Shown: positions 8,074 to 50,346 of the stretch, in pieces
How the letters are laid out: each line of letters opens with the position of its first letter
Position numbering within the stretch: the first letter of the stretch is position 1
Source: an uncultured Clostridia bacterium
GTDB lineage: Bacteria; Bacillota; Clostridia; TANB77; CAG-508
Assembly (NCBI GenBank): GCA_963556825.1
Contig: CAUWAM010000001.1
Location: forward strand, 685 to 64,684
Length of the DNA stretch: 64,000 nucleotides
Direction: 5' to 3'
The notes under the pieces: model-generated
The model's database searches: none
Told to the model about the DNA's origin: nothing
Seen by the model: only the letters and a program-made list of their open reading frames with translations
Made by a program: the position numbers and the translations under genes

Positions 8074-9582
8074 ATGAGTGAAAATAATAACCAAAATAAT
8101 AATGAAGTAGAAGAATTAGATATTAATCATCTAATGCAAATAAGAAGAGATAAATTGAAAGAATTACAAGATGAAGGAAAAGACCCATTTGAAATAACAA
8201 AATTTAATAGAACAAATTCAGCAGGAGAAATAAAAACAAATTATGACAAATTTGAACAAAAAGACGTAACAGTAGCAGGAAGAATAATAGCAAAAAGAAT
8301 AATGGGAAAAGCATCATTTTGTACAATTCAAGATAGTGATGAAAAAATTCAAAGTTATGTAAGTATAAATGATTTAGGAGAAGAAAGTTATAAAGCATTT
8401 AAAACATATGATATTGGAGATATAATTGGAATAACAGGATTTGTATTTAAAACAAGAACAGAAGAAATATCAGTGCATGCAAAAGAAGTAACATTACTTT
8501 CTAAATCATTAAGACCATTACCAGAAAAATTCCATGGATTAAAAGATCCTGATTTAAGATATAGACAAAGATATGTGGATTTAATAATGAATCCAGAAGT
8601 GAAAAAAACATTTGAAACAAGAAGTAAAATAATAAGTAATATAAGAAGTATATTAGAAGAAGAAGGATTTTTAGAAGTTGAAACACCAGTATTAAACACA
8701 ATATCAGGTGGAGCAACAGCTAGACCATTTATAACACATCACAATGCTTTAGACATAAGCATGTATTTAAGAATAGCATTAGAATTAAACTTAAAAAGAC
8801 TAATAGTGGGTGGATTTGATAAAGTATATGAAATAGGAAGAGTATTTAGAAATGAAGGTATGGATATTAGACATAATCCAGAATTTACAATGCTTGAACT
8901 ATATGCGTCATATCAAGACTTCCATGATATGATGGATATAACTGAAAAAATATTCTCACAAACAGCACAAAAAGTTTTAGGAACAACAAAAATAACATAT
9001 CAAGGACAAGAAATAGATTTAACACCAGGATGGAAAAGAATTACTATGGTAGATAGCATCAAAGAAGCATGCGGAGTGGACTTCAATAAAATAACAACAG
9101 ATGAAGAAGCTGTTGCTTTAGCTAAAGAAAGAGGTATAGAAATTCCAGACTCAACAAAAGAAACAAGAGGTGATGTAATAAGTTTATTCTTTGATGAATA
9201 TGTAGAAAAAACATTAATACAACCAACATTTATATATGAGTATCCAGTAGAAATATCACCACTTGCAAAAAAATGTCCAGATAATAAAAAAATGACAGAA
9301 AGATTTGAAGTATTTATCGGTGGTAGAGAATACGGAAATGCATTTTCAGAATTAAATGACCCAATCGACCAATATGAAAGATTTAAAAAACAAGTAGAGG
9401 CAAAAGAAGCTGGGGATGAAGAAGCTGGAATGATGGATGAAGATTATATTAATGCATTAGAAATAGGATTACCTCCAACAGGTGGATTAGGAATTGGAAT
9501 TGATAGATTAGTAATGCTATTAACAGATGCAGCTTCAATAAGAGATGTATTATTATTCCCAACAATGAAACCCTTAAATTAA
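8074..9582 (+). CDS. lysS: lysine--tRNA ligase (class II)
   Basis: An OB anticodon-binding N-terminus and a class II core (..[18 protein letters not shown].., [14 protein letters not shown]); 502 aa. Confidence 0.9.
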
Positions 9583-41502: not shown

Positions 41503-42723
41503 TTATTTATTTTCTTTTTTATTAGTTGTTGCTATTTTTTGTTTTTTGTTTTCTTCATTTTTAGAATTTTTAGGAAGTAAAGTCATAACTAAAATTCCTA
41601 AACCTAAAATAGTTATAACAAATGATATAATTGAACCAACAAAAGGTAAAGCTCTTAATACCCAAACTATAATTCCAGTAACAACCAACATTCCAAAAAT
41701 TCCAGAATTTGCATTAATATTCAATTTAGCACAAAGGTAATTATTTGCAGTAATTGTAAATAATGCTTTAGAAATCACAAGTGCTAAAATATATAAAGCA
41801 ATCAATAATAAAGCAACACTACTTGTTAATTGTAAAAGGATTAGCACAATAGAAATAACAGGAATTACAACTAATGTAAGTAAGCCAAAACCTAAAACTT
41901 TCCAAGAAATTTTTCCAACATAATTATTAGTTGATTTTAAGAATTTAGGGGCAATCCATAAGCAAACTAGCCAAATAATTAAGATAAATGCAAGAAATGC
42001 ACCTAAATTTAAAATATAGTTTGCAATAATAGTGCCTACATTCATATTTTTAAGATTTGAATTTATTTCATTAAATTTAACTTCTCCTAAAACAATATCA
42101 TCAGAAATATTAATTTTTTCAGCAGAAGAATATTCTAAATTACCATAAATAACACCTTTTTTGGATTGTTCTGAATCATTATTTTCTGTATTAAAATTAA
42201 TGTCATTAGCGCTTACAAAAGCGTTTCTACCAATAGTACCATTAATATTTAAAGTTTGGCATAAAGTTTTTAAATCTCTATAAACAAATCCATTAGAAAT
42301 ATTCAAATTTTGCGAAAAGGCAAAAACATCATATGCAACACCTTTTATAGTAATAGATTGTGCACAAGTAAAAATATTATTAAAAATATAACCTTCTTTT
42401 TCAATAACAACATCTTTTGCTAAAATAAAAGCATCTCCGCCTATTTGAGAATTGATAGTAACTTTATTAGCTATAATAAAAACATTACCATCAACAATAT
42501 AATCAATATTTACTTCATCTTCGCAAAGATATAAATCAGACTTTTTAAAAGAATCGTTTTTTTGTTCTTCTTGATTAATATTATCAACAACTTGATTTTC
42601 TACAGAATTAGTTTCGTTAGTTATTTCACTATTAGATTCATTGTCAGCTAAAACAAATGAAGATGAAAAAAGTAAAACTAATACAAGAAAAATTGTAAGA
42701 AATTTTGATTTTTTTCTTAACAT
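41503..42723 (-). CDS. membrane protein: signal peptide, bactofilin-like (polymer-forming) beta-helical repeats, C-terminal multi-TM domain
   Basis: Signal peptide MLRKKSKFLTIFLVLVLLFSSSFVLA, an Asn/Glu-rich spacer, repeated (G)xVxIxxxV motifs, then about 5 TM helices and a Lys-rich tail; 406 aa. Confidence 0.45.
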   Translation of the reverse strand: MLRKKSKFLTIFLVLVLLFSSSFVLADNESNSEITNETNSVENQVVDNINQEEQKNDSFKKSDLYLCEDEVNIDYIVDGNVFIIANKVTINSQIGGDAFILAKDVVIEKEGYIFNNIFTCAQSITIKGVAYDVFAFSQNLNISNGFVYRDLKTLCQTLNINGTIGRNAFVSANDINFNTENNDSEQSKKGVIYGNLEYSSAEKINISDDIVLGEVKFNEINSNLKNMNVGTIIANYILNLGAFLAFILIIWLVCLWIAPKFLKSTNNYVGKISWKVLGFGLLTLVVIPVISIVLILLQLTSSVALLLIALYILALVISKALFTITANNYLCAKLNINANSGIFGMLVVTGIIVWVLRALPFVGSIISFVITILGLGILVMTLLPKNSKNEENKKQKIATTNKKENK

Positions 42724-42847
42724 AATAGACCTCCTTAATATTTATTAATATGCTAAAATAATATATCTTTACAGTAATTTTGTCAATCAATTTTTATAAA
42801 AAAGAAATAATTAGGACAGATTAAAATGTATCAAAATTCATTTAAAG

Positions 42848-42876
42848 TTGACAAAAGAATAAATAAACTATATACT
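42848..42876 (+). promoter_or_regulatory. sigma-A promoter of the SCIFF gene
   Basis: TTGACA, 17 nt spacer, TATACT, about 65 nt before the SCIFF start. Confidence 0.5.
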
Positions 42877-42945
42877 TAAAATAAGGCTATAGATTAGTCA
42901 GAAACCAAGAAACCTCAGATCTACAATTGGAGAGGAGGAAAAAAC

Positions 42946-43092
42946 ATGAAGCACATAAGAACTTTATCAGGCAAGCTCCTTAAAGACACTATGAAAAACG
43001 GTGGTTGTGGAGAATGTCAGACTTCATGCCAGTCAGCTTGCAAGACTTCTTGTACGGTTGGCAACCAACATTGCGAAAACAAAAATCAGTAA
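42946..43092 (+). CDS. scfA: SCIFF (six-cysteines-in-forty-five) radical SAM-modified peptide precursor
   Basis: 48 aa MKHIRTLSGKLLKDTMKNGGCGECQTSCQSACKTSCTVGNQHCENKNQ. The GGCGECQTSCQSACKTSCTV core is the hallmark of SCIFF (TIGR03973 type). RBS ggaggagg. The ORF track's 60-aa cutoff excludes it. Confidence 0.8.
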   Translation: MKHIRTLSGKLLKDTMKNGGCGECQTSCQSACKTSCTVGNQHCENKNQ

Positions 43093-43200
43093 TATATGGT
43101 AATTGTTTTTCGAAAAAAGAAGTACTTTGGGACAGTAAAACTGTTTCAAAGTGCTTTTACTATTTATGAATTAAATTATAAAACTATTGTATTCAAAATA

Positions 43201-43227
43201 GAATAAAAAATCTAAAAATTTCTTAAA
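43201..43227 (+). repeat. 27-bp direct repeat, left copy (island boundary)
   Basis: gaataaaaaatctaaaaatttcttaaa is identical to 50024-50050. Confidence 0.6.
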
Positions 43228-43595
43228 TGACATTGTATCATATGTAGTGCTTTCATCTTTAGTTTTTTTAGAAGAAAAATTCATTTATATAAATTTGTTT
43301 AGCACAATGGTTAGCAGGAAAGATAGCAAAAAAATAATTATAAATAATTTCAAATAATATTATGAAAACAAATGATTTCTAAAAACAATAAAAATACTTG
43401 TAAAAGAAATAAAAATATAATATAAAAACATTAGAAAAAGAAAACAAAAGATAAATAAAATTATAGATAAGTTTTATGATACAGTAGAAAAATTCATTTA
43501 AAGAGAGAAGAAAAAGAGAAAAATTGGGATTTGGAAATTTAAATAGTGCAATTTAGGAAAAGAAATGTTATAATGATGTGGTAGGAGGAATCAGG

Positions 43596-44342
43596 ATGAA
43601 ACAAAATATATATGATAATGAGATATTTTCAAATGCATACGACCAAATGAGAAAGATAGATAAGGGGAAAAATGCGAATGACTTGGTTGAAATTCCTAAT
43701 TTTAGAAAGTTGATTCCAAATGTTAAAGGAAAAAAGATTCTTGATTTAGGATGTGGATATGGAGAAAACGATAAGTATTGTAGAGATTTAGGAGCAAAGG
43801 AAATTCTAGGAATTGATATTTCTGAACACATGATAAAAATTGCGAAAGAGAATAATTATGACAAAAATATAAAATATAAAGTAATGGCAATGGAAGACAT
43901 TAGTAAAATTAATGAAAAATTTGATATTGTTATTTCATCATTAGCATTTCATTATGTTAAAGACTATGAAAAATTAATAAATGATATATATAGTTTATTA
44001 AATGATGACGGAATATTAATTTTTTCAATAGACCATCCATTAAGGATAGCAAGCAAGTTTGAAAAATGGATGAAAAAAAATTATACAGAGATAAATGGAA
44101 AGTGGTTTTTACTTGTTTCAGACTATAATCGAGAGGGAGTAAGAGAAAAGGAGTGGAATGGTGTTATGGTGAAAAAGTACCACAGAAATTTTAGTAGTTT
44201 AATAAATGTCCTAGTAAATTCAGGATTTAAAATTGATAAAATTTTAGAGCCAATACCAGATGAAGAAAGTATAAAAATTATTCCAAAATATATCAATCAA
44301 TTTGATAGACCATATTTTTTATTTATAAGAGCTAAAAAGTAG
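43596..44342 (+). CDS. class I SAM-dependent methyltransferase
   Basis: Motif I ILDLGCGYGEN and post-I D(I) acidic residues (Methyltransf_11/25-like). The ATG is 7 nt after GGAGG. The track start is a GTG 6 codons upstream. Confidence 0.7.
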   Translation: MKQNIYDNEIFSNAYDQMRKIDKGKNANDLVEIPNFRKLIPNVKGKKILDLGCGYGENDKYCRDLGAKEILGIDISEHMIKIAKENNYDKNIKYKVMAMEDISKINEKFDIVISSLAFHYVKDYEKLINDIYSLLNDDGILIFSIDHPLRIASKFEKWMKKNYTEINGKWFLLVSDYNREGVREKEWNGVMVKKYHRNFSSLINVLVNSGFKIDKILEPIPDEESIKIIPKYINQFDRPYFLFIRAKK

Positions 44343-44392
44343 CATGGAACAAATATAAATTCCATGCTACTTTTATAGAAAATAGTTATTTT

Positions 44393-44971
44393 CTAATAAT
44401 AAATAGGTTTCAATGCAGTGAGATTGTAGTCAATTTCAAATAATGCTGTGTTTGCAGGTTGCTTAGCATTTTTATATTGAGTTTCATAGATATATTTAAT
44501 GAACTCATTTCTATATTTCAAATAATATGAAATAATACGAAGTGTACCACCATGAGCAACAATTAACACATTTTCATTTTTTGAAAACTGTTCATCAAAA
44601 AAATTTTTGATTCTAAAATAAACATCTTCTGTTGATTCAGCGTTAAAAAAAGAGGGCGTAGAATTATAGAGATCCCATTCTTCTTGCAAAATTTCAGGAA
44701 TAAATCTGCCTTCTAGAGTCCCATAATCAACACTTCTAAGTCGAGAATCTAAAATAACATCTTTTGATAAATACTTATTGATGATTTGCGTAGTTTGAAT
44801 TGCACGGAGCAAATCAGAAGATATTATTTTATCAAAATTGAGCTTTTCTATTTTCGTTCTAGCAATATCAGCTTCTTTCCGTCCGTTTTCATTAATTGGA
44901 ATTGGATTATGTCCCTGTAATTGCTTAGACATATTCCAGTCAGTTTGACCATGTCTTACAATATAAATCAT
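44393..44971 (-). CDS. histidine phosphatase family protein (phosphoglycerate mutase/CobC-like)
   Basis: MIYIVRHGQTDWN.. RHG catalytic motif and a second His in ..LIVAHGGTLR... RBS ggaggt. Confidence 0.7.
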   Translation of the reverse strand: MIYIVRHGQTDWNMSKQLQGHNPIPINENGRKEADIARTKIEKLNFDKIISSDLLRAIQTTQIINKYLSKDVILDSRLRSVDYGTLEGRFIPEILQEEWDLYNSTPSFFNAESTEDVYFRIKNFFDEQFSKNENVLIVAHGGTLRIISYYLKYRNEFIKYIYETQYKNAKQPANTALFEIDYNLTALKPIYY

Positions 44972-45032
44972 ATAATTACCTCCGTTCATATAAAGAAACC
45001 TACTAAAAATAAACTAAATTCATACATTAAAT

Positions 45033-45087
45033 TTTATCACATTATGTAAAATTAGTCAATCATTGACATAAAATAAAAATTGTGATA
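45033..45087. promoter_or_regulatory. nested palindrome (candidate operator) in the divergent promoter region
   Basis: TTATCACA..(13)..GTCAATcATTGAC..(13)..TGTGATAA. The outer 8-bp inverted repeats flank a perfect 6-1-6 palindrome. It overlaps the putative NUDIX promoter (TTGACA-17-TAAATT). Confidence 0.3.
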
Positions 45088-45115
45088 AATTAAAAAAACG
45101 TAGGAGGAAAATGTA

Positions 45116-45661
45116 ATGGAATGCATAATAAAGATAAACGATAAAGATATAGGAGAAGAAATCTATAAAATAAATGAACCAAATATAAGAAAAGCAGTTC
45201 GCACAATTTTATTTAATGAAAAAGGTGAAATAGCAATACTACATAAAAAAAACAAAAATGAATATAAACTTGTTGGGGGCGGCATTGAAGAGAACGAAGA
45301 TATGGAAGAGGCGCTAAGAAGAGAAGTAAACGAAGAAGCAGGATGTGAAATAAAAGATATAGTGGAACTAGGTTATGTAGAGGAATTAAGAACTGTAAAT
45401 AATTTTATGCAAATATCATATGTTTTTATTTCAAAGGTTAAAATAGATAAAAAACAACTGAACTTAACTAAACAAGAACAAGATGAGGGAGCTGAAATAT
45501 GTTGGCTATTACCTGAAATTGCTCTAAAAAGGATAAAAGAATGTTATGATAAATTAAATCCATCTAAATACAGTAACTTATATAATTCAAAAATGGTTAT
45601 AAAAAGAGATGAACTTATATTAGAATATTATTTAAAAAAAAATGAAAGAACCACAATATAA
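45116..45661 (+). CDS. NUDIX hydrolase
   Basis: Perfect Nudix box G-GIEEN-E-DMEEALR-RE-V-N-EE-A-G-C (GX5EX7REUXEEXGU); 181 aa; RBS aggagg. Confidence 0.8.
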   Translation: MECIIKINDKDIGEEIYKINEPNIRKAVRTILFNEKGEIAILHKKNKNEYKLVGGGIEENEDMEEALRREVNEEAGCEIKDIVELGYVEELRTVNNFMQISYVFISKVKIDKKQLNLTKQEQDEGAEICWLLPEIALKRIKECYDKLNPSKYSNLYNSKMVIKRDELILEYYLKKNERTTI

Positions 45662-45694
45662 TGGTTCTTCATTTTTTCGGTAGCAATGATAAAA

Positions 45695-46546
45695 TTAATT
45701 ACAATGATCCTTTTCGTAAATCTCTTTGATATTGAGATTGTCTGTTAACATATTTCCATAATTAACATCCTCTGTTTCAGCTCCAATCATTCTATACAAA
45801 TCTCCATGAGGAGATACCATAAGACGTGTAGCTAATTTTGAAGGCATTCTACCATCAATTTTGAGATTAGGAAACATTTTCTGTAACTGAGCAACCTTAG
45901 CGAAAAATTCTTCATCAGTAATATCAAAGCGATTTTTGTTAGGAACAGCTCCTCTTCCACTTGCGGAATTAAAGCGTCTTAGTTTCCAATGGTCAACTCC
46001 AAGTTCATTTAAGAGTGAACCAAGTTCTTCAAGATAATCGATATTTTCTTTGTGAACACAAGTGTTAATAAGAACACCGATGTTTCCTGCTTTTTTGACC
46101 ATTTTGATACGAGAGATGATGGTGTCACGATGACACTTTGTGCAGCGAATTTTTTCATTCAATTCGTCATTTGCAGATTCAAAAGGAAATGCAATAGAGT
46201 TTAAGTGATTTTTAATTTTTCCAAATGTTTCCTCTGTAAGAAGAATACCATTTGTACTAAGTCGTGTATCAAGACCTCTATTGTATGCATCGATAATCAA
46301 ATCAGGCAAATGGGGAATCAATAATGGCTCGCCACCAATGTAACGCATCTTGGTTAAACCAGTTTCGATTAACTGATTTTGTACCTTGAAGTGTCCTTCT
46401 CTTGTTGTTATTTCACTCCGTTTGTTAGGACTGATGCAGTAACCACATCTTTCCTGACAAGAATGGGTAATAATCCAAGAGATAATTACTTCGCCAACAT
46501 GATTGGGATCTTCGATAGTATAATGCTTTTTTTCATTACTATTCAT
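45695..46546 (-). CDS. radical SAM enzyme, viperin/MoaA-like core, no SPASM domain
   Basis: CxxxCxxC in ITHSCQERCGYCISP, a GGE motif (YIGGEPLL) and STNGILL. Visibly higher GC (~35-38%) than the ~27% background. RBS ggaggtg. Several blocks align with viperin by eye: TRQCNYKCGFC, SGGEPFL, SNGSLI. Confidence 0.7.
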   Translation of the reverse strand: MNSNEKKHYTIEDPNHVGEVIISWIITHSCQERCGYCISPNKRSEITTREGHFKVQNQLIETGLTKMRYIGGEPLLIPHLPDLIIDAYNRGLDTRLSTNGILLTEETFGKIKNHLNSIAFPFESANDELNEKIRCTKCHRDTIISRIKMVKKAGNIGVLINTCVHKENIDYLEELGSLLNELGVDHWKLRRFNSASGRGAVPNKNRFDITDEEFFAKVAQLQKMFPNLKIDGRMPSKLATRLMVSPHGDLYRMIGAETEDVNYGNMLTDNLNIKEIYEKDHCN

Positions 46547-46658
46547 AATTAGCACCTCCATAAAGTCTTATTGATAGGTAAAAAAACATTTATCGTTACC
46601 GAACTAACTATATTATATCAACAAAAAGAAATTATGTCAACAAAACGGTCGAAAACTG

Positions 46659-46687
46659 TTGAAATAATTGGAAAAAAGTTGTATAAT
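46659..46687 (+). promoter_or_regulatory. sigma-A promoter for the oxidoreductase-MTase-phosphatase operon
   Basis: TTGAAA, 17 nt spacer, tgtTATAAT (extended -10). An upstream inverted repeat caacaaaacggtcgaaaactgttg is also present. Confidence 0.5.
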
Positions 46688-46722
46688 TAGAGAGAATTGT
46701 TATAAAAAAATGGAGGATTTCT

Positions 46723-48171
46723 ATGGGAACACCAAATATCATGTTGATTGGGTGCGGACCTCATGCAAAAAGAGTATATGTTCCTAAATTAAAAGAGGTT
46801 GAAAATGAGTTTAGAATAAAACTTAAAGCAGTTGTAGAATTAGAAGAAAAAGAGGAAGATGTAAAAAAATTTATCTCAAATTACTTTGAAAATATTGAAT
46901 ACATTTTTATTGAAAAATTTGAATCTAAATACAGACAAAATTTACCAAAGGAGATTGAAAGTAGATTAGATAATATTGTAAAAAAGGAAAACATTAACTC
47001 TGTTATAATTGCAACAGATCCATTAAATCATATGCAATATGCACTATGGGCTTTAAAAAACAAACTGCATATTTTAATGGATAAGCCTATTTCTACATAC
47101 GATAATATTTCTAATAATGTTGAGCAAGCAGAACAATTAAAAAGAGATTATGAATTATTGGTAAAAAATTATTCAAGTAATCAAGCATTTATTGTAAATG
47201 CTCAAAGGAGATTTTTACCGCAATTTCAAATTGTTCAAGATTTAGTAAATGAAATTGCAAGCAAATATGGAATGCCAATTACATCAATACAAAGTACACA
47301 CAGTGATGGTCAATGGAGATTACCAGATGAGGTTTTAAAGTTAAGGTATCATCCATTATTAGGTTGGGGAAAAGTTTCACATAGTGGATATCATTTTATA
47401 GATATGGCATCAAAAATGGTAAAAGATTCATTTAAAGAAGCGAACAAAACATTTGATGAAATATCAGTGTTTACAAAATTTATTCGACCATCAGGAGTTT
47501 TATTACAACAAAATCAAAAAGATTTGAAAACAATTTTTGGAGAAGAATATTTAAAAATTGATTCTAGGACTGATGATGAACTAATTAAATTATATAAAGA
47601 AAAAAATGAGGCTGAGGTTGATGCAAATTCAATTATTTCATTATCATATGAAGGCATTACTGTTACAAATATTACATTGAATTTAATGCATAATGGTTTT
47701 TCTCGTCGTTCTTGGTTGAATGCCAATATGAAAGACTTATATAAAGGAAATGGTAGAGTAAGACATGAATATCATAATATAGAACAAGGTTGTTTACAAA
47801 ATATTCAAATACATTCATATCAGTCTAAAGATAAACATGGTATTAATAAAGAAAGTGATTTTGAACTAGGTGGAAACAATCATTATGATATATATGTTTT
47901 TAGAAATAGTGGAATAACTGGTGGTGAGACTATAAAAGTAATCAGAGGAATAGATATTGCAGAAAAATATTCATTAGATAAGACAAAAATAATGAATGAA
48001 CTGGCTAGACACGAAGCATTAAAGCAATTTTTAGAGGTTGTGATAGGCAAGAGAAAACCTATGGAGACAAAGTCAAATATTCTAGATCACAAGATGTCTG
48101 TTGAGATAATGTCACTAATTTATAAATCAGGCACAAGTGAAAATGAAATAAAAGAAAAATATCAAGATTAA
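46723..48171 (+). CDS. Gfo/Idh/MocA-like NAD(P)-binding oxidoreductase, unusually long (482 aa)
   Basis: N-terminal Rossmann motif IMLIGCGPHAKRVYVPKL is typical of the Gfo/Idh/MocA family. The C-terminal ~150 aa are unassigned. Confidence 0.55.
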   Translation: MGTPNIMLIGCGPHAKRVYVPKLKEVENEFRIKLKAVVELEEKEEDVKKFISNYFENIEYIFIEKFESKYRQNLPKEIESRLDNIVKKENINSVIIATDPLNHMQYALWALKNKLHILMDKPISTYDNISNNVEQAEQLKRDYELLVKNYSSNQAFIVNAQRRFLPQFQIVQDLVNEIASKYGMPITSIQSTHSDGQWRLPDEVLKLRYHPLLGWGKVSHSGYHFIDMASKMVKDSFKEANKTFDEISVFTKFIRPSGVLLQQNQKDLKTIFGEEYLKIDSRTDDELIKLYKEKNEAEVDANSIISLSYEGITVTNITLNLMHNGFSRRSWLNANMKDLYKGNGRVRHEYHNIEQGCLQNIQIHSYQSKDKHGINKESDFELGGNNHYDIYVFRNSGITGGETIKVIRGIDIAEKYSLDKTKIMNELARHEALKQFLEVVIGKRKPMETKSNILDHKMSVEIMSLIYKSGTSENEIKEKYQD

Positions 48172-48181
48172 TGAGGTATAT

Positions 48182-48856
48182 ATGGAGAATAAAGATAATC
48201 AATGGAATAAATTATATGAAAATTATATAAATAAAGAATTTAAAAATTGGGATGAATATTTTAAAACAAAAATGAAATTAAAAAAGAAATTTTTACATCA
48301 GGTATTAAAATATTATGATGGAAAAAAGCCAGTTTTGGAATGTGGAGCTGGAACAGGTAAATTTTCTGCTTATCTTGCTTCGAAAGGTGTAAAAGCATAT
48401 GCAATGGATTTAGAACAAGCGATGGTTGAACAAACAAGAGAATTATCCAAACAAGTAAGTCCTGAAAATGAGGTTAATGTTTTTCAGGGAGATATTAGAA
48501 ATATACCATTTGAAAATAAATTTTTTTCAGTAACACATAGTAGTGGGGTTATGGAACATTATAGTGATGAAGAAATAGTTGAGATAATAAATGAACAATT
48601 AAGAGTTTCTGACATTTGCATGTTTAGTGTACCAACTCCTTATTTTGAGAAAAAAATGCTTGGAAACGAAAGATTTATGAAACGAAACAAGTGGAGAACA
48701 ATAATAGATAAAAGTAATGCAGAGATAATTAAAGAAACAGGATATCATTATAAAACATTATGGAATAGAGTTATTGACATATGTAAAAAACCATCAAGAA
48801 TATTAAAACCAATAGCATTATATGTGTTTGTATTAAAAGAAAAGGAGGAAAAATAA
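48182..48856 (+). CDS. class I SAM-dependent methyltransferase
   Basis: Motif I VLECGAGTGKFSAYLA, AYAMDLEQ; 224 aa. Confidence 0.7.
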   Translation: MENKDNQWNKLYENYINKEFKNWDEYFKTKMKLKKKFLHQVLKYYDGKKPVLECGAGTGKFSAYLASKGVKAYAMDLEQAMVEQTRELSKQVSPENEVNVFQGDIRNIPFENKFFSVTHSSGVMEHYSDEEIVEIINEQLRVSDICMFSVPTPYFEKKMLGNERFMKRNKWRTIIDKSNAEIIKETGYHYKTLWNRVIDICKKPSRILKPIALYVFVLKEKEEK

Positions 48857-48857
48857 A

Positions 48858-49421
48858 ATGATTTATGTAGTAAGACATGGACAAACAAATTGGAATTTGG
48901 AAGGAAGATTTCAAGGAAGAATTGATATTCCTTTAAATGAAAAAGGAAAAAGCCAAGCAGAAAAAACAAAAGAAAAATTGGAAGATATTAAATTTGACAA
49001 AGTATTTTCAAGCCCATTAACGAGAGCATTAGAAACAGCACAAATTATTACAGATGAGCCAATTGAAATTGATGATAGAATAATCGAAAGATGTAATGGA
49101 CAACTAGAAGGCAAATTAAAAACAGAATGTGAAAATATGGTTGATTTCACAGATGAAAATGAACAAAAACTTGGAATTGAATCTTTACCAGATTTTAGAG
49201 GAAGAATAACTAGTTTCTTTGATGAATTAGGAGAGAAATATGCAGGTAAAGATGTATTAGTAGTAACTCATGCTGGAGTTAGTATTTATGTAAGATGTTA
49301 TTTTGAGGGAGAGCCAAAAGACGGAAATTATAATAATTATAAATTAAAAAATTGTGAAGTTCTTCAATATGATAATTCTAGAAAGGTAAATAAAGCAATA
49401 GAAGATGATTTTGAAAGATAA
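48858..49421 (+). CDS. histidine phosphatase family protein (paralogue of 44393-44971)
   Basis: MIYVVRHGQTNWNLEGRFQG.. and ..LVVTHAGV... It starts 2 nt after the MTase stop, which suggests operon coupling. Confidence 0.7.
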   Translation: MIYVVRHGQTNWNLEGRFQGRIDIPLNEKGKSQAEKTKEKLEDIKFDKVFSSPLTRALETAQIITDEPIEIDDRIIERCNGQLEGKLKTECENMVDFTDENEQKLGIESLPDFRGRITSFFDELGEKYAGKDVLVVTHAGVSIYVRCYFEGEPKDGNYNNYKLKNCEVLQYDNSRKVNKAIEDDFER

Positions 49422-49426
49422 AATAT

Positions 49427-49459
49427 GTAGGGGATTCTTAATTCCCTACATATTTTTTT
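49427..49459. terminator. intrinsic terminator
   Basis: tgtaggggatt-N-aattccctaca followed by T7. Confidence 0.5.
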
Positions 49460-49586
49460 CTAACCATTTATATATATCATCATCAGTAAGTTCGCCGTGT
49501 TTTAATTTTGTAATCTGTTCTTTAGCTTGTTTCTTCCAAGTGTCAAATTCTTGCTTAATTTGTTTATCTCCTTTATTCTTATTCAT
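49447..49586 (-). CDS. possible small ORF (46 aa), uncertain
   Basis: MNKNKGDKQIKQEFDTWKKQAKEQITKLKHGELTDDDIYKWLEKNM. No convincing RBS, and the stop lies inside the terminator stem. Confidence 0.2.
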
Positions 49587-50023
49587 AAAAGTAAATTTTT
49601 GAACATATAGTTTTCTATATTCAGAATATGGTGTTTTTTCTTATAATCTTTTATTGTAAGAAAGTGTAGTTATTTATCTTTGAAAGTTCTTCTAGTATTG
49701 CATAACAAATGCTAGATAAATCATTACTTTTATGAGTATTTACCATTGAAATTATTGTTGTTTTATTTTTTAATTTTTCCAATAGTTCATATTCAGATAC
49801 GTCAAGTAATTCATCATATTTATTTGAGTAACTGCCTGAAATAACAGTATCATTCTTTTATAAGATATACAGCATATCTTTCAGAATGTGTATAAGGTCT
49901 TAATTCTTCAATATCATCTATATTATATATGTAATTTACGGCATCTATCATATAAATGCAGGTTATTCTGAAAAATGATGCAATTCCAAAAGTTGCACAA
50001 GATATTGTTTTACTTAAAATTGG

Positions 50024-50050
50024 GAATAAAAAATCTAAAAATTTCTTAAA
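50024..50050 (+). repeat. 27-bp direct repeat, right copy (island boundary)
   Basis: Identical to 43201-43227. An extended ~35-bp match has 2 mismatches. Confidence 0.6.
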
Positions 50051-50129
50051 AACCTTGTAAAATAAACCCAATTGTGTTAATATAATAAATATATAAAATA
50101 AATCCAATTAAAAAGCAAAGTATATATAT

Positions 50130-50346
50130 TAAATAAAAACAGAGAAAATATCCTAGGCTGAAAGATATTTAAACAATATGTAGAAATTTCACTTTTTAGG
50201 ACTTCTTTTGAACAACAAAAGTAGAAAGAAGCGGTTGAACCGTTAAAACTATAATAAGGTTAGTTAGAAATAATAAACTAATAAATTTAGGTGGTACCAC
50301 GGAAATCCATTTCGTCCTATACAAATAGGATGATGTGGATTTTTTT
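50130..50346 (+). promoter_or_regulatory. T-box riboswitch leader (Phe specifier) for pheS-pheT
   Basis: Stem I AGAGA and distal-loop GCUGA motifs, a candidate specifier UUC-A (aaatTTCac), the T-box sequence AATTTAGGTGGTACCACGG (~50284-50302), then a terminator hairpin plus T7 ending at ~50346. Confidence 0.6.

Follow-up and report, generated by a model that had tools for sequence, protein, structure and literature searches.

A stand-alone scfA gene for the SCIFF ranthipeptide precursor in a clade of low-GC gut Clostridia

We describe a clade of uncultured Clostridia of ~26–29% GC, many of them from gut metagenomes (several human), in which scfA, the gene for the SCIFF ranthipeptide precursor, stands alone: in at least 10 related species it is never followed by scfB, which encodes the radical SAM/SPASM maturase. 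The loci of this clade are not canonical scfAB cassettes and represent a variant organisation of a known system. The peptide itself is well preserved, and we consider it probable, from sequence comparison, that scfA encodes a functional precursor that is matured in trans by an ScfB-type enzyme encoded elsewhere.

SCIFF peptides are nearly universal in Clostridia, and links to quorum sensing and sporulation have been reported in solventogenic clostridia. To place the locus, we compared it with the best 80 SCIFF loci of species-representative genomes, among which scfB lies directly 3′ of scfA in 79 (74 cases are clean, in 4 the stop-to-stop ORFs overlap, and 1 is truncated by a contig end). The statement of a first-pass annotation of this DNA that scfB almost always follows scfA is therefore correct, and it agrees with the published description of the SCIFF system as 'pure', every ScfA being accompanied by ScfB and all 234 of the 234 radical SAM genes located at most 500 bp from a SCIFF gene being ScfB (Haft & Haft, PMC5300114). 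The lone exception among the 80 is L019, a metagenome-assembled genome (MAG) of an uncultured Clostridia with 28% GC. Its nucleotide identity to our sequence of 78–86% over two housekeeping genes marks L019 as a relative of the organism studied here. The unnamed members of the SCIFF 90% cluster were considered as sister species and rejected, as they are Lachnospira-type peptides.

The scfA gene, its expression signals and its conservation

The DNA analysed, referred to as the window, is a 64,000-nucleotide stretch from an uncultured Clostridia bacterium. The features of the scfA region are as follows.

41503..42723, minus strand: 406-aa DUF8173 membrane protein, the divergent neighbour of scfA (Pfam PF26514)
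42848..42876, plus strand: predicted scfA promoter, −35 box TTGACA, 17-nt spacer, −10 box TATACT (11 of 12 consensus matches; boxes conserved)
42929..42938, plus strand: ribosome-binding site (RBS) GGAGAGGAGG, 7 nt 5′ of the ATG (read from the sequence; conserved in sister species)
42946..43092, plus strand: scfA, 48-aa SCIFF ranthipeptide precursor with leader (residues 1–20) and six-Cys core (residues 21–43), identified by HMM matches
43118..43158, plus strand: predicted intrinsic terminator hairpin with T-run (scan; 19 pairs; 1 found versus 0.1 expected in shuffles)

The translation of the 48 codons at 42946–43092(+) agrees exactly with the peptide given in the first-pass annotation, which had called it a textbook SCIFF with its own promoter and RBS; the profile scores and the conserved signals described below bear this out. 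Membership of the SCIFF family is assigned by a score over the curated HMM cutoff, and the peptide matches both TIGR03973 (85.8 bits; cutoff 50) and PF13165 (88.3 bits; cutoff 27) over the full length of the models. Its cysteines, C21, C24, C28, C32, C36 and C43, have the family spacing CxxCxxxCxxxCxxxC. The family occurs in the class Clostridia, to which the organism belongs: its relatives L019 and L123 are each designated Clostridia bacterium, and the gene content includes the spore genes SspH and SleB-like. No second SCIFF-like motif was found in the window besides scfA.

Because promoter-like hexamers are frequent in this AT-rich DNA (27% GC; 13 promoter-like sites found in the window versus 6.6 expected), a promoter scan alone proves little. 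Better evidence for the predicted promoter comes from conservation across species: four clade species, when aligned, show no change in either promoter box, in the RBS or in the start codon, while the intergenic DNA around these elements diverges. A hairpin equivalent to that at 43118–43158 is present 3′ of scfA in L019, L092 and L121. Given this terminator, scfA is predicted to be monocistronic, a self-contained unit of sigma-70-type promoter, strong RBS, 48 codons and intrinsic terminator, and we infer that it is expressed.

An exact 15-mer, AAAATTCATTTAAAG, occurs at 42833–42847, directly 5′ of the scfA −35 box, and at 43489–43503, so that the two copies bracket scfA; a copy with one mismatch lies at 47423–47437. 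These three matches compare with 0.18 expected, and 0/100 shuffles reached 3. The first copy falls inside a 44-bp stretch that is missing from relatives, and the second lies ~93 nt 5′ of the first gene of a 6.8-kb segment described below. Possible explanations of the repeat are a shared operator and a scar left by recombination.

We examined selection on scfA by pairwise Nei–Gojobori comparison of clade species. Over core codons 19–43, 10–15 of ~16 synonymous sites differ, which amounts to saturation, as against 0–2 of ~59 nonsynonymous sites, giving a core dN/dS of ~0.01–0.03 across the clade; the leader, at 0.16–0.7, is much more relaxed. All 11 SCIFF variants of the clade have an intact core, and that of the window is identical to the commonest scfB-linked SCIFF cores except at the variable position 42 (H here). 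Relaxed as the leader is, 7 clade species keep every one of the positions that hardly vary among the 79 scfB-linked SCIFFs (M1, K2, H3, I/V4, K/R5, T6, L/I7, L12, T/S15, G19 and G20). In CteA and Tte1186a, the cross-link is reported to join C32 with T34 or T37 (PMC8326336), and C32, T34 and T37 are all present in the window's peptide. By these estimates, the scfA peptide is under very strong purifying selection.

Absence of scfB from the window and its relatives

To search for the maturase, we built an ScfB profile from 42 ScfB proteins adjoining SCIFF genes in other species; one member, checked against TIGR03974, scored 679 bits (cutoff 425). A six-frame hmmsearch of the window with this profile, filters off, found no ScfB. 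The sole signal, of 21 bits, came from the generic radical SAM core of a 288-aa enzyme at 45695–46561(−). Likewise, no scfB pseudogene remnant was found in the ~500 bp 3′ of scfA, in the 49.4–50.0 kb stretch or in the rest of the window, and no ScfB-like gene in the adjoining 10 kb on the left and 9 kb on the right. The search thus spans ~84 kb of a genome that is probably larger than 1.5 Mb. A scan of all six frames of the window for CxxxCxxC returned five ORFs, namely RimO, a U32 peptidase fragment, an RNHCP protein, a protein of no family and the 288-aa enzyme, which has the radical SAM core only; RimO and the 288-aa enzyme are the only radical SAM proteins in the window. The six-frame profile search and the family searches thus confirm the earlier statement that no SPASM radical SAM is present in the window. 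The canonical cassette, in which a TIGR03974 ScfB lies within ~500 bp of scfA, does not occur here.

The layout is not an artefact of assembly or of the window's edge, since nine independent metagenome contigs carry the exact SCIFF peptide with the same neighbours, and the window itself lies within a 201,454-bp contig (ENA ERZ1764580 NODE_25).

The 288-aa enzyme was examined separately.

45695..46561, minus strand: 288-aa viperin-like radical SAM protein, core domain only (pVip models, Pfam)

It matches prokaryotic viperin (pVip) models at 108–111 bits over nearly the full model length. In this it resembles the prokaryotic viperins, from which it differs in falling below the equivalog cutoff (101 bits against NF038283; cutoff 180). 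PF04055 is its only Pfam domain; it has 7 Cys, and neither a SPASM motif nor an RRE was found in it. An ScfB-type enzyme combines RRE, radical SAM and SPASM domains and scores at least 425 bits against TIGR03974, whereas this protein reaches only the 21 bits noted above with our ScfB profile. The first-pass annotation had judged it viperin-like and an unlikely thioether synthase, and the pVip scores and the lack of SPASM and RRE support that judgement.

We then used the DUF8173 neighbour as a probe to find the clade in metagenome contigs and in a protein collection; DUF8173 identities across the clade run from 99% down to ~52%. The gene orders found around scfA are listed below.

L092, L099, L111 and L112 (sister lineage type B): rpe–DUF8173, scfA, then pta fragment, Flg_new and pta–ackA
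L121: DUF8173, scfA, 93-aa ORF, MITE-like inverted repeat, then T-box–pheST–HAD–A24–M24–EFP
L125–L127: DUF8173, scfA (L125/L127); scfA, then pheS after 460 bp (L126)
L128/L129: rpe–DUF8173, scfA
L124: DUF8173, scfA, then a U32 peptidase region
L122: DUF8173, scfA, then a sigma/anti-sigma region
L101/L109: DUF8173, scfA, then the contig end ~300–390 bp on
L019/L115/L116: NUDIX, scfA, then biotin/lipoate (BPL) ligase

Housekeeping proteins of sister type B are ~90% identical to those of the window, and L126 is of the same species as L125. The gene order of L121 is that of the window minus the 6.8-kb segment. Across 50 clade loci, which total 549 kb with some redundancy, the ScfB profile found no ScfB, and no radical SAM gene was found near scfA in the clade contexts examined. 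We also searched a 5.8-billion-protein collection with an ScfB alignment as query. All 120 matches listed, out of at least 8000 candidates, have a predicted GC content of at least 35% (predicted from protein composition; r = −0.87, 58 calibrators), so that none of these 120 comes from this low-GC clade.

Thus scfB is naturally missing at the locus in relatives, an outcome that the first-pass annotation, which had asked whether relatives have the order scfA–scfB–pheS, had itself named as speaking against its reading. Judged from these gene orders, the missing scfB is a trait of the clade and not an event in this genome, and the predicted basic layout of the clade is rsgA–rpe–DUF8173 (minus strand), scfA (plus strand), T-box–pheST. 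Older hints come from other Clostridia: six loci have genes for PP2C and a PASTA kinase upstream of scfAB, and in L024 and L056 pheST is found 2–7 kb downstream of scfB. We infer from these that scfB may have been part of this neighbourhood in a far more remote ancestor.

In some relatives scfA is missing at the locus: in sister type A (L090, L091, L096, L097 and L106), DUF8173 adjoins pgk–tpi–gpmI, and in L123 (GCA_017410505.1) it is followed by a 115-aa ORF and pheST. In these genomes scfA may have moved elsewhere or been lost; the peptide could be dispensable. The sister lineage, with 93–97% nucleotide identity on the DUF8173 side, has two configurations, scfA–pta–ackA or pgk–tpi–gpmI without scfA, whose breakpoints coincide exactly with the ends of the scfA unit. 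These breakpoints, together with the lack of scfA in L123, suggest that the scfA unit sits at a rearrangement hot spot. In L128, a large serine recombinase (Resolvase/Recombinase/Zn_ribbon_recom) and a 422-aa gene without a name are inserted upstream of rsgA (393–2048), further evidence of an insertion-prone neighbourhood. In L121, scfA is followed by a small conserved ORF (93–115 aa, beginning with M..K..KC.EYYFDSKKY), which in L123 stands in place of scfA. The MITE-like inverted repeat of L121, ~450 bp and nearly perfect, separates the 93-aa ORF from the pheS promoter (~8700–9300, minus strand).

The repeat-bounded 6.8-kb segment and the pheST side

Downstream of scfA, the window contains a segment bounded by direct repeats, followed by pheST.

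43201..43227, plus strand: left copy of a perfect 27-nt direct repeat, GAATAAAAAATCTAAAAATTTCTTAAA (0/100 shuffles gave any match)
43228..50023, no strand assigned: species-specific 6.8-kb segment (gene families; synteny)
50024..50050, plus strand: right copy of the 27-nt direct repeat, directly before the pheS promoter and leader
50098..50322, plus strand: T-box leader of pheST (Rfam RF00230, 100 bits; synteny with L121, L123 and L126)

The first-pass annotation had proposed that a direct repeat bounds an island at this place, as the two perfect 27-nt copies establish. The segment encodes a methyltransferase, a His-phosphatase, a NUDIX protein, the pVip-like radical SAM protein, a GFO/IDH/MocA oxidoreductase, a second methyltransferase and a second His-phosphatase, and it contains a decayed ORF. 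It is missing at this site in L121, L123, L126, L092 and L111, and T-box–pheST directly follows scfA or the small ORF in relatives. L121 is homologous to the window as far as the end of scfA and again from ~50048, after the second repeat copy, indicating that the 6.8 kb are an insertion or replacement specific to the window's species. It had also been proposed that the insertion displaced or deleted scfB. This is contradicted by the relatives, since those without the segment are without scfB as well and the insertion must have hit a site that was already free of it. The comparison of gene orders thus shows the sequence of events: the site was scfB-free first, and the segment, a cassette with the scfA terminator on one side and the pheS leader on the other, would have been inserted later.

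No recombinase gene was found in the segment by family searches. The GC content is slightly raised over its radical SAM gene (0.33–0.35), and the gene set looks like a nucleotide-analogue or antiviral small-molecule cassette. At its right end, 49446–50020(−), short frameshifted ORF fragments resemble a decayed gene of ~190 aa; we considered a recombinase or an scfB remnant and rejected both, as there is no family match, Pfam included.

A 30-nt element, GAGACAGTTGGGACAGTCCAATTTTGTCTC, occurs on the pheST side in four copies, which form two inverted pairs (0 expected). One pair (50347–50376/50445–50474) follows the T-box and precedes the pheS start; the second (51538–51567/51638–51667) is located between pheS and pheT. 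L123 has a similar inverted pair before pheS, and the scfA terminator resembles GAGACAGTTGGGACAGTCCAATTTTGTCTC over 21 nt. The element may be REP/MITE-like or a regulatory hairpin.

Maturation of the SCIFF peptide and relation to known systems

The leader of a RiPP precursor serves for recognition by the maturase, in ScfB-type enzymes via the RRE domain. Since the leader is kept and the core is selected, the peptide is likely still a substrate of an ScfB-type enzyme, which is why we prefer maturation in trans, one of the two options raised in the first-pass annotation. In the scheme that we favour, scfA is a genuine, functional and monocistronic SCIFF precursor gene that became uncoupled from scfB in this clade of gut Clostridia. 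A radical SAM/SPASM enzyme of the ScfB type, with its gene at another place in the genome, would still recognise the leader and would cross-link the core in trans by a thioether from Cys to the C-gamma of Thr, as in CteA/CteB.

An alternative that we regard as unlikely, if still worth serious attention, is that scfB was lost throughout the genome and the clade and that SCIFF was kept for a role in which ScfB has no part, whether as a cysteine-rich peptide that stays unmodified or as a substrate for another enzyme unrelated to ScfB. It would account for scfB never being near scfA in the at least 10 species and 549 kb of clade DNA and for the behaviour of scfA as a separate module that has a promoter and a terminator to itself; the literature, moreover, has every ScfA with an ScfB, unlinked pairs being undocumented (PMC5300114). 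Such a loss is hard to reconcile with a peptide that keeps all the leader positions of scfB-linked SCIFFs, and a core identical to theirs and selected as strictly as this one is difficult to explain without a maturase. The observed absence, moreover, covers a small fraction of any one genome. Slightly less probable still, in our estimation, is that a clade devoid of ScfB keeps SCIFF, leader included, under extreme purifying selection, with its own strong promoter and beside DUF8173, for a function independent of the cross-link or with a new partner. That scfA is a decaying, functionless relic of scfB loss is very improbable: its absence from the locus in L123 and the sister type A contigs could be read in this way, but saturated synonymous sites in a core with 0–2 amino-acid changes across the clade, the conserved promoter, RBS and terminator, and 11 variants without a frameshifted or Cys-mutated allele among them are not what decay leaves behind.

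We give equally little credence to the idea that this genome once had an ancestral scfA–scfB–pheS order whose scfB was displaced or deleted by the 6.8-kb island. The segment is a real species-specific insertion with perfect repeats, and both pheST and the PP2C/PASTA kinase genes do occur near scfAB elsewhere; yet no scfB lies between scfA and pheS in the segment-free L121 and L126, none follows scfA in L092, L111, L124 or L019, a search with filters off detected no ScfB remnant in the segment or on either side of it, and direct repeats flanking an insertion imply addition rather than deletion. Least probable of all is maturation by the 288-aa enzyme, 2.6 kb away. Although it is the only non-housekeeping radical SAM protein in the window, its best matches are prokaryotic viperins, it lacks both the SPASM auxiliary-cluster cysteines and an RRE leader-binding domain, and its gene is part of the species-specific segment, with no relative having it close to scfA. 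We rejected it as the SCIFF maturase on its domain content and its lack of linkage to scfA in relatives.

The peptide belongs to the same family as those of the canonical scfA–scfB pairs (CteA/CteB of C. thermocellum; Tte1186a/Tte1186), with which it has in common the core CGECQTSCQSACKTSCTVGNQxCE and the leader MKH[IV]KT..L..GG. The window's scfA differs from them in having no scfB within 500 bp or ~84 kb and in having its own terminator, an arrangement that extends across the clade. Trans maturation of scfA would resemble the prochlorosins, whose ProcA precursor peptides, with their conserved leaders, are encoded away from the maturase ProcM. Those peptides belong to a different RiPP class with a different enzyme, and there many diverse precursors share one enzyme, in contrast to the single ultra-conserved scfA. 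A mirror image of the lone scfA is NF040492 ('not_ScfB'), an ScfB-related radical SAM/SPASM orphan maturase with no adjacent precursor. NF040492 is a family of enzymes, not of peptides, and its existence shows that curators are aware of uncoupling among the enzymes; the window and the clade loci yielded no member.

Annotation pipelines and RiPP miners rely on the adjacency of scfA and scfB, a rule to which this clade is an exception. In such clades, mining anchored on radical SAM genes would miss the precursor, and mining anchored on the peptide would call scfA an orphan. If ScfB is absent genome-wide, the clade is a natural experiment on SCIFF without the cross-link; if ScfB is merely elsewhere, the point is a modest one, concerning operon break-up and the separate regulation of precursor and enzyme.

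A further feature of the clade is the neighbour on the other side of scfA. DUF8173 adjoins scfA in the window, L092/L099/L111, L101, L109, L121, L122, L124, L125/L127 and L128/L129, and no DUF8173 homologue was found near SCIFF in the loci of the 80 other species. The divergent pair, with a promoter region of ~170–220 bp in common, is kept in about nine clade species and persists while the genes downstream of scfA keep changing. This pairing could reflect a functional link, perhaps in export or sensing, or just synteny.
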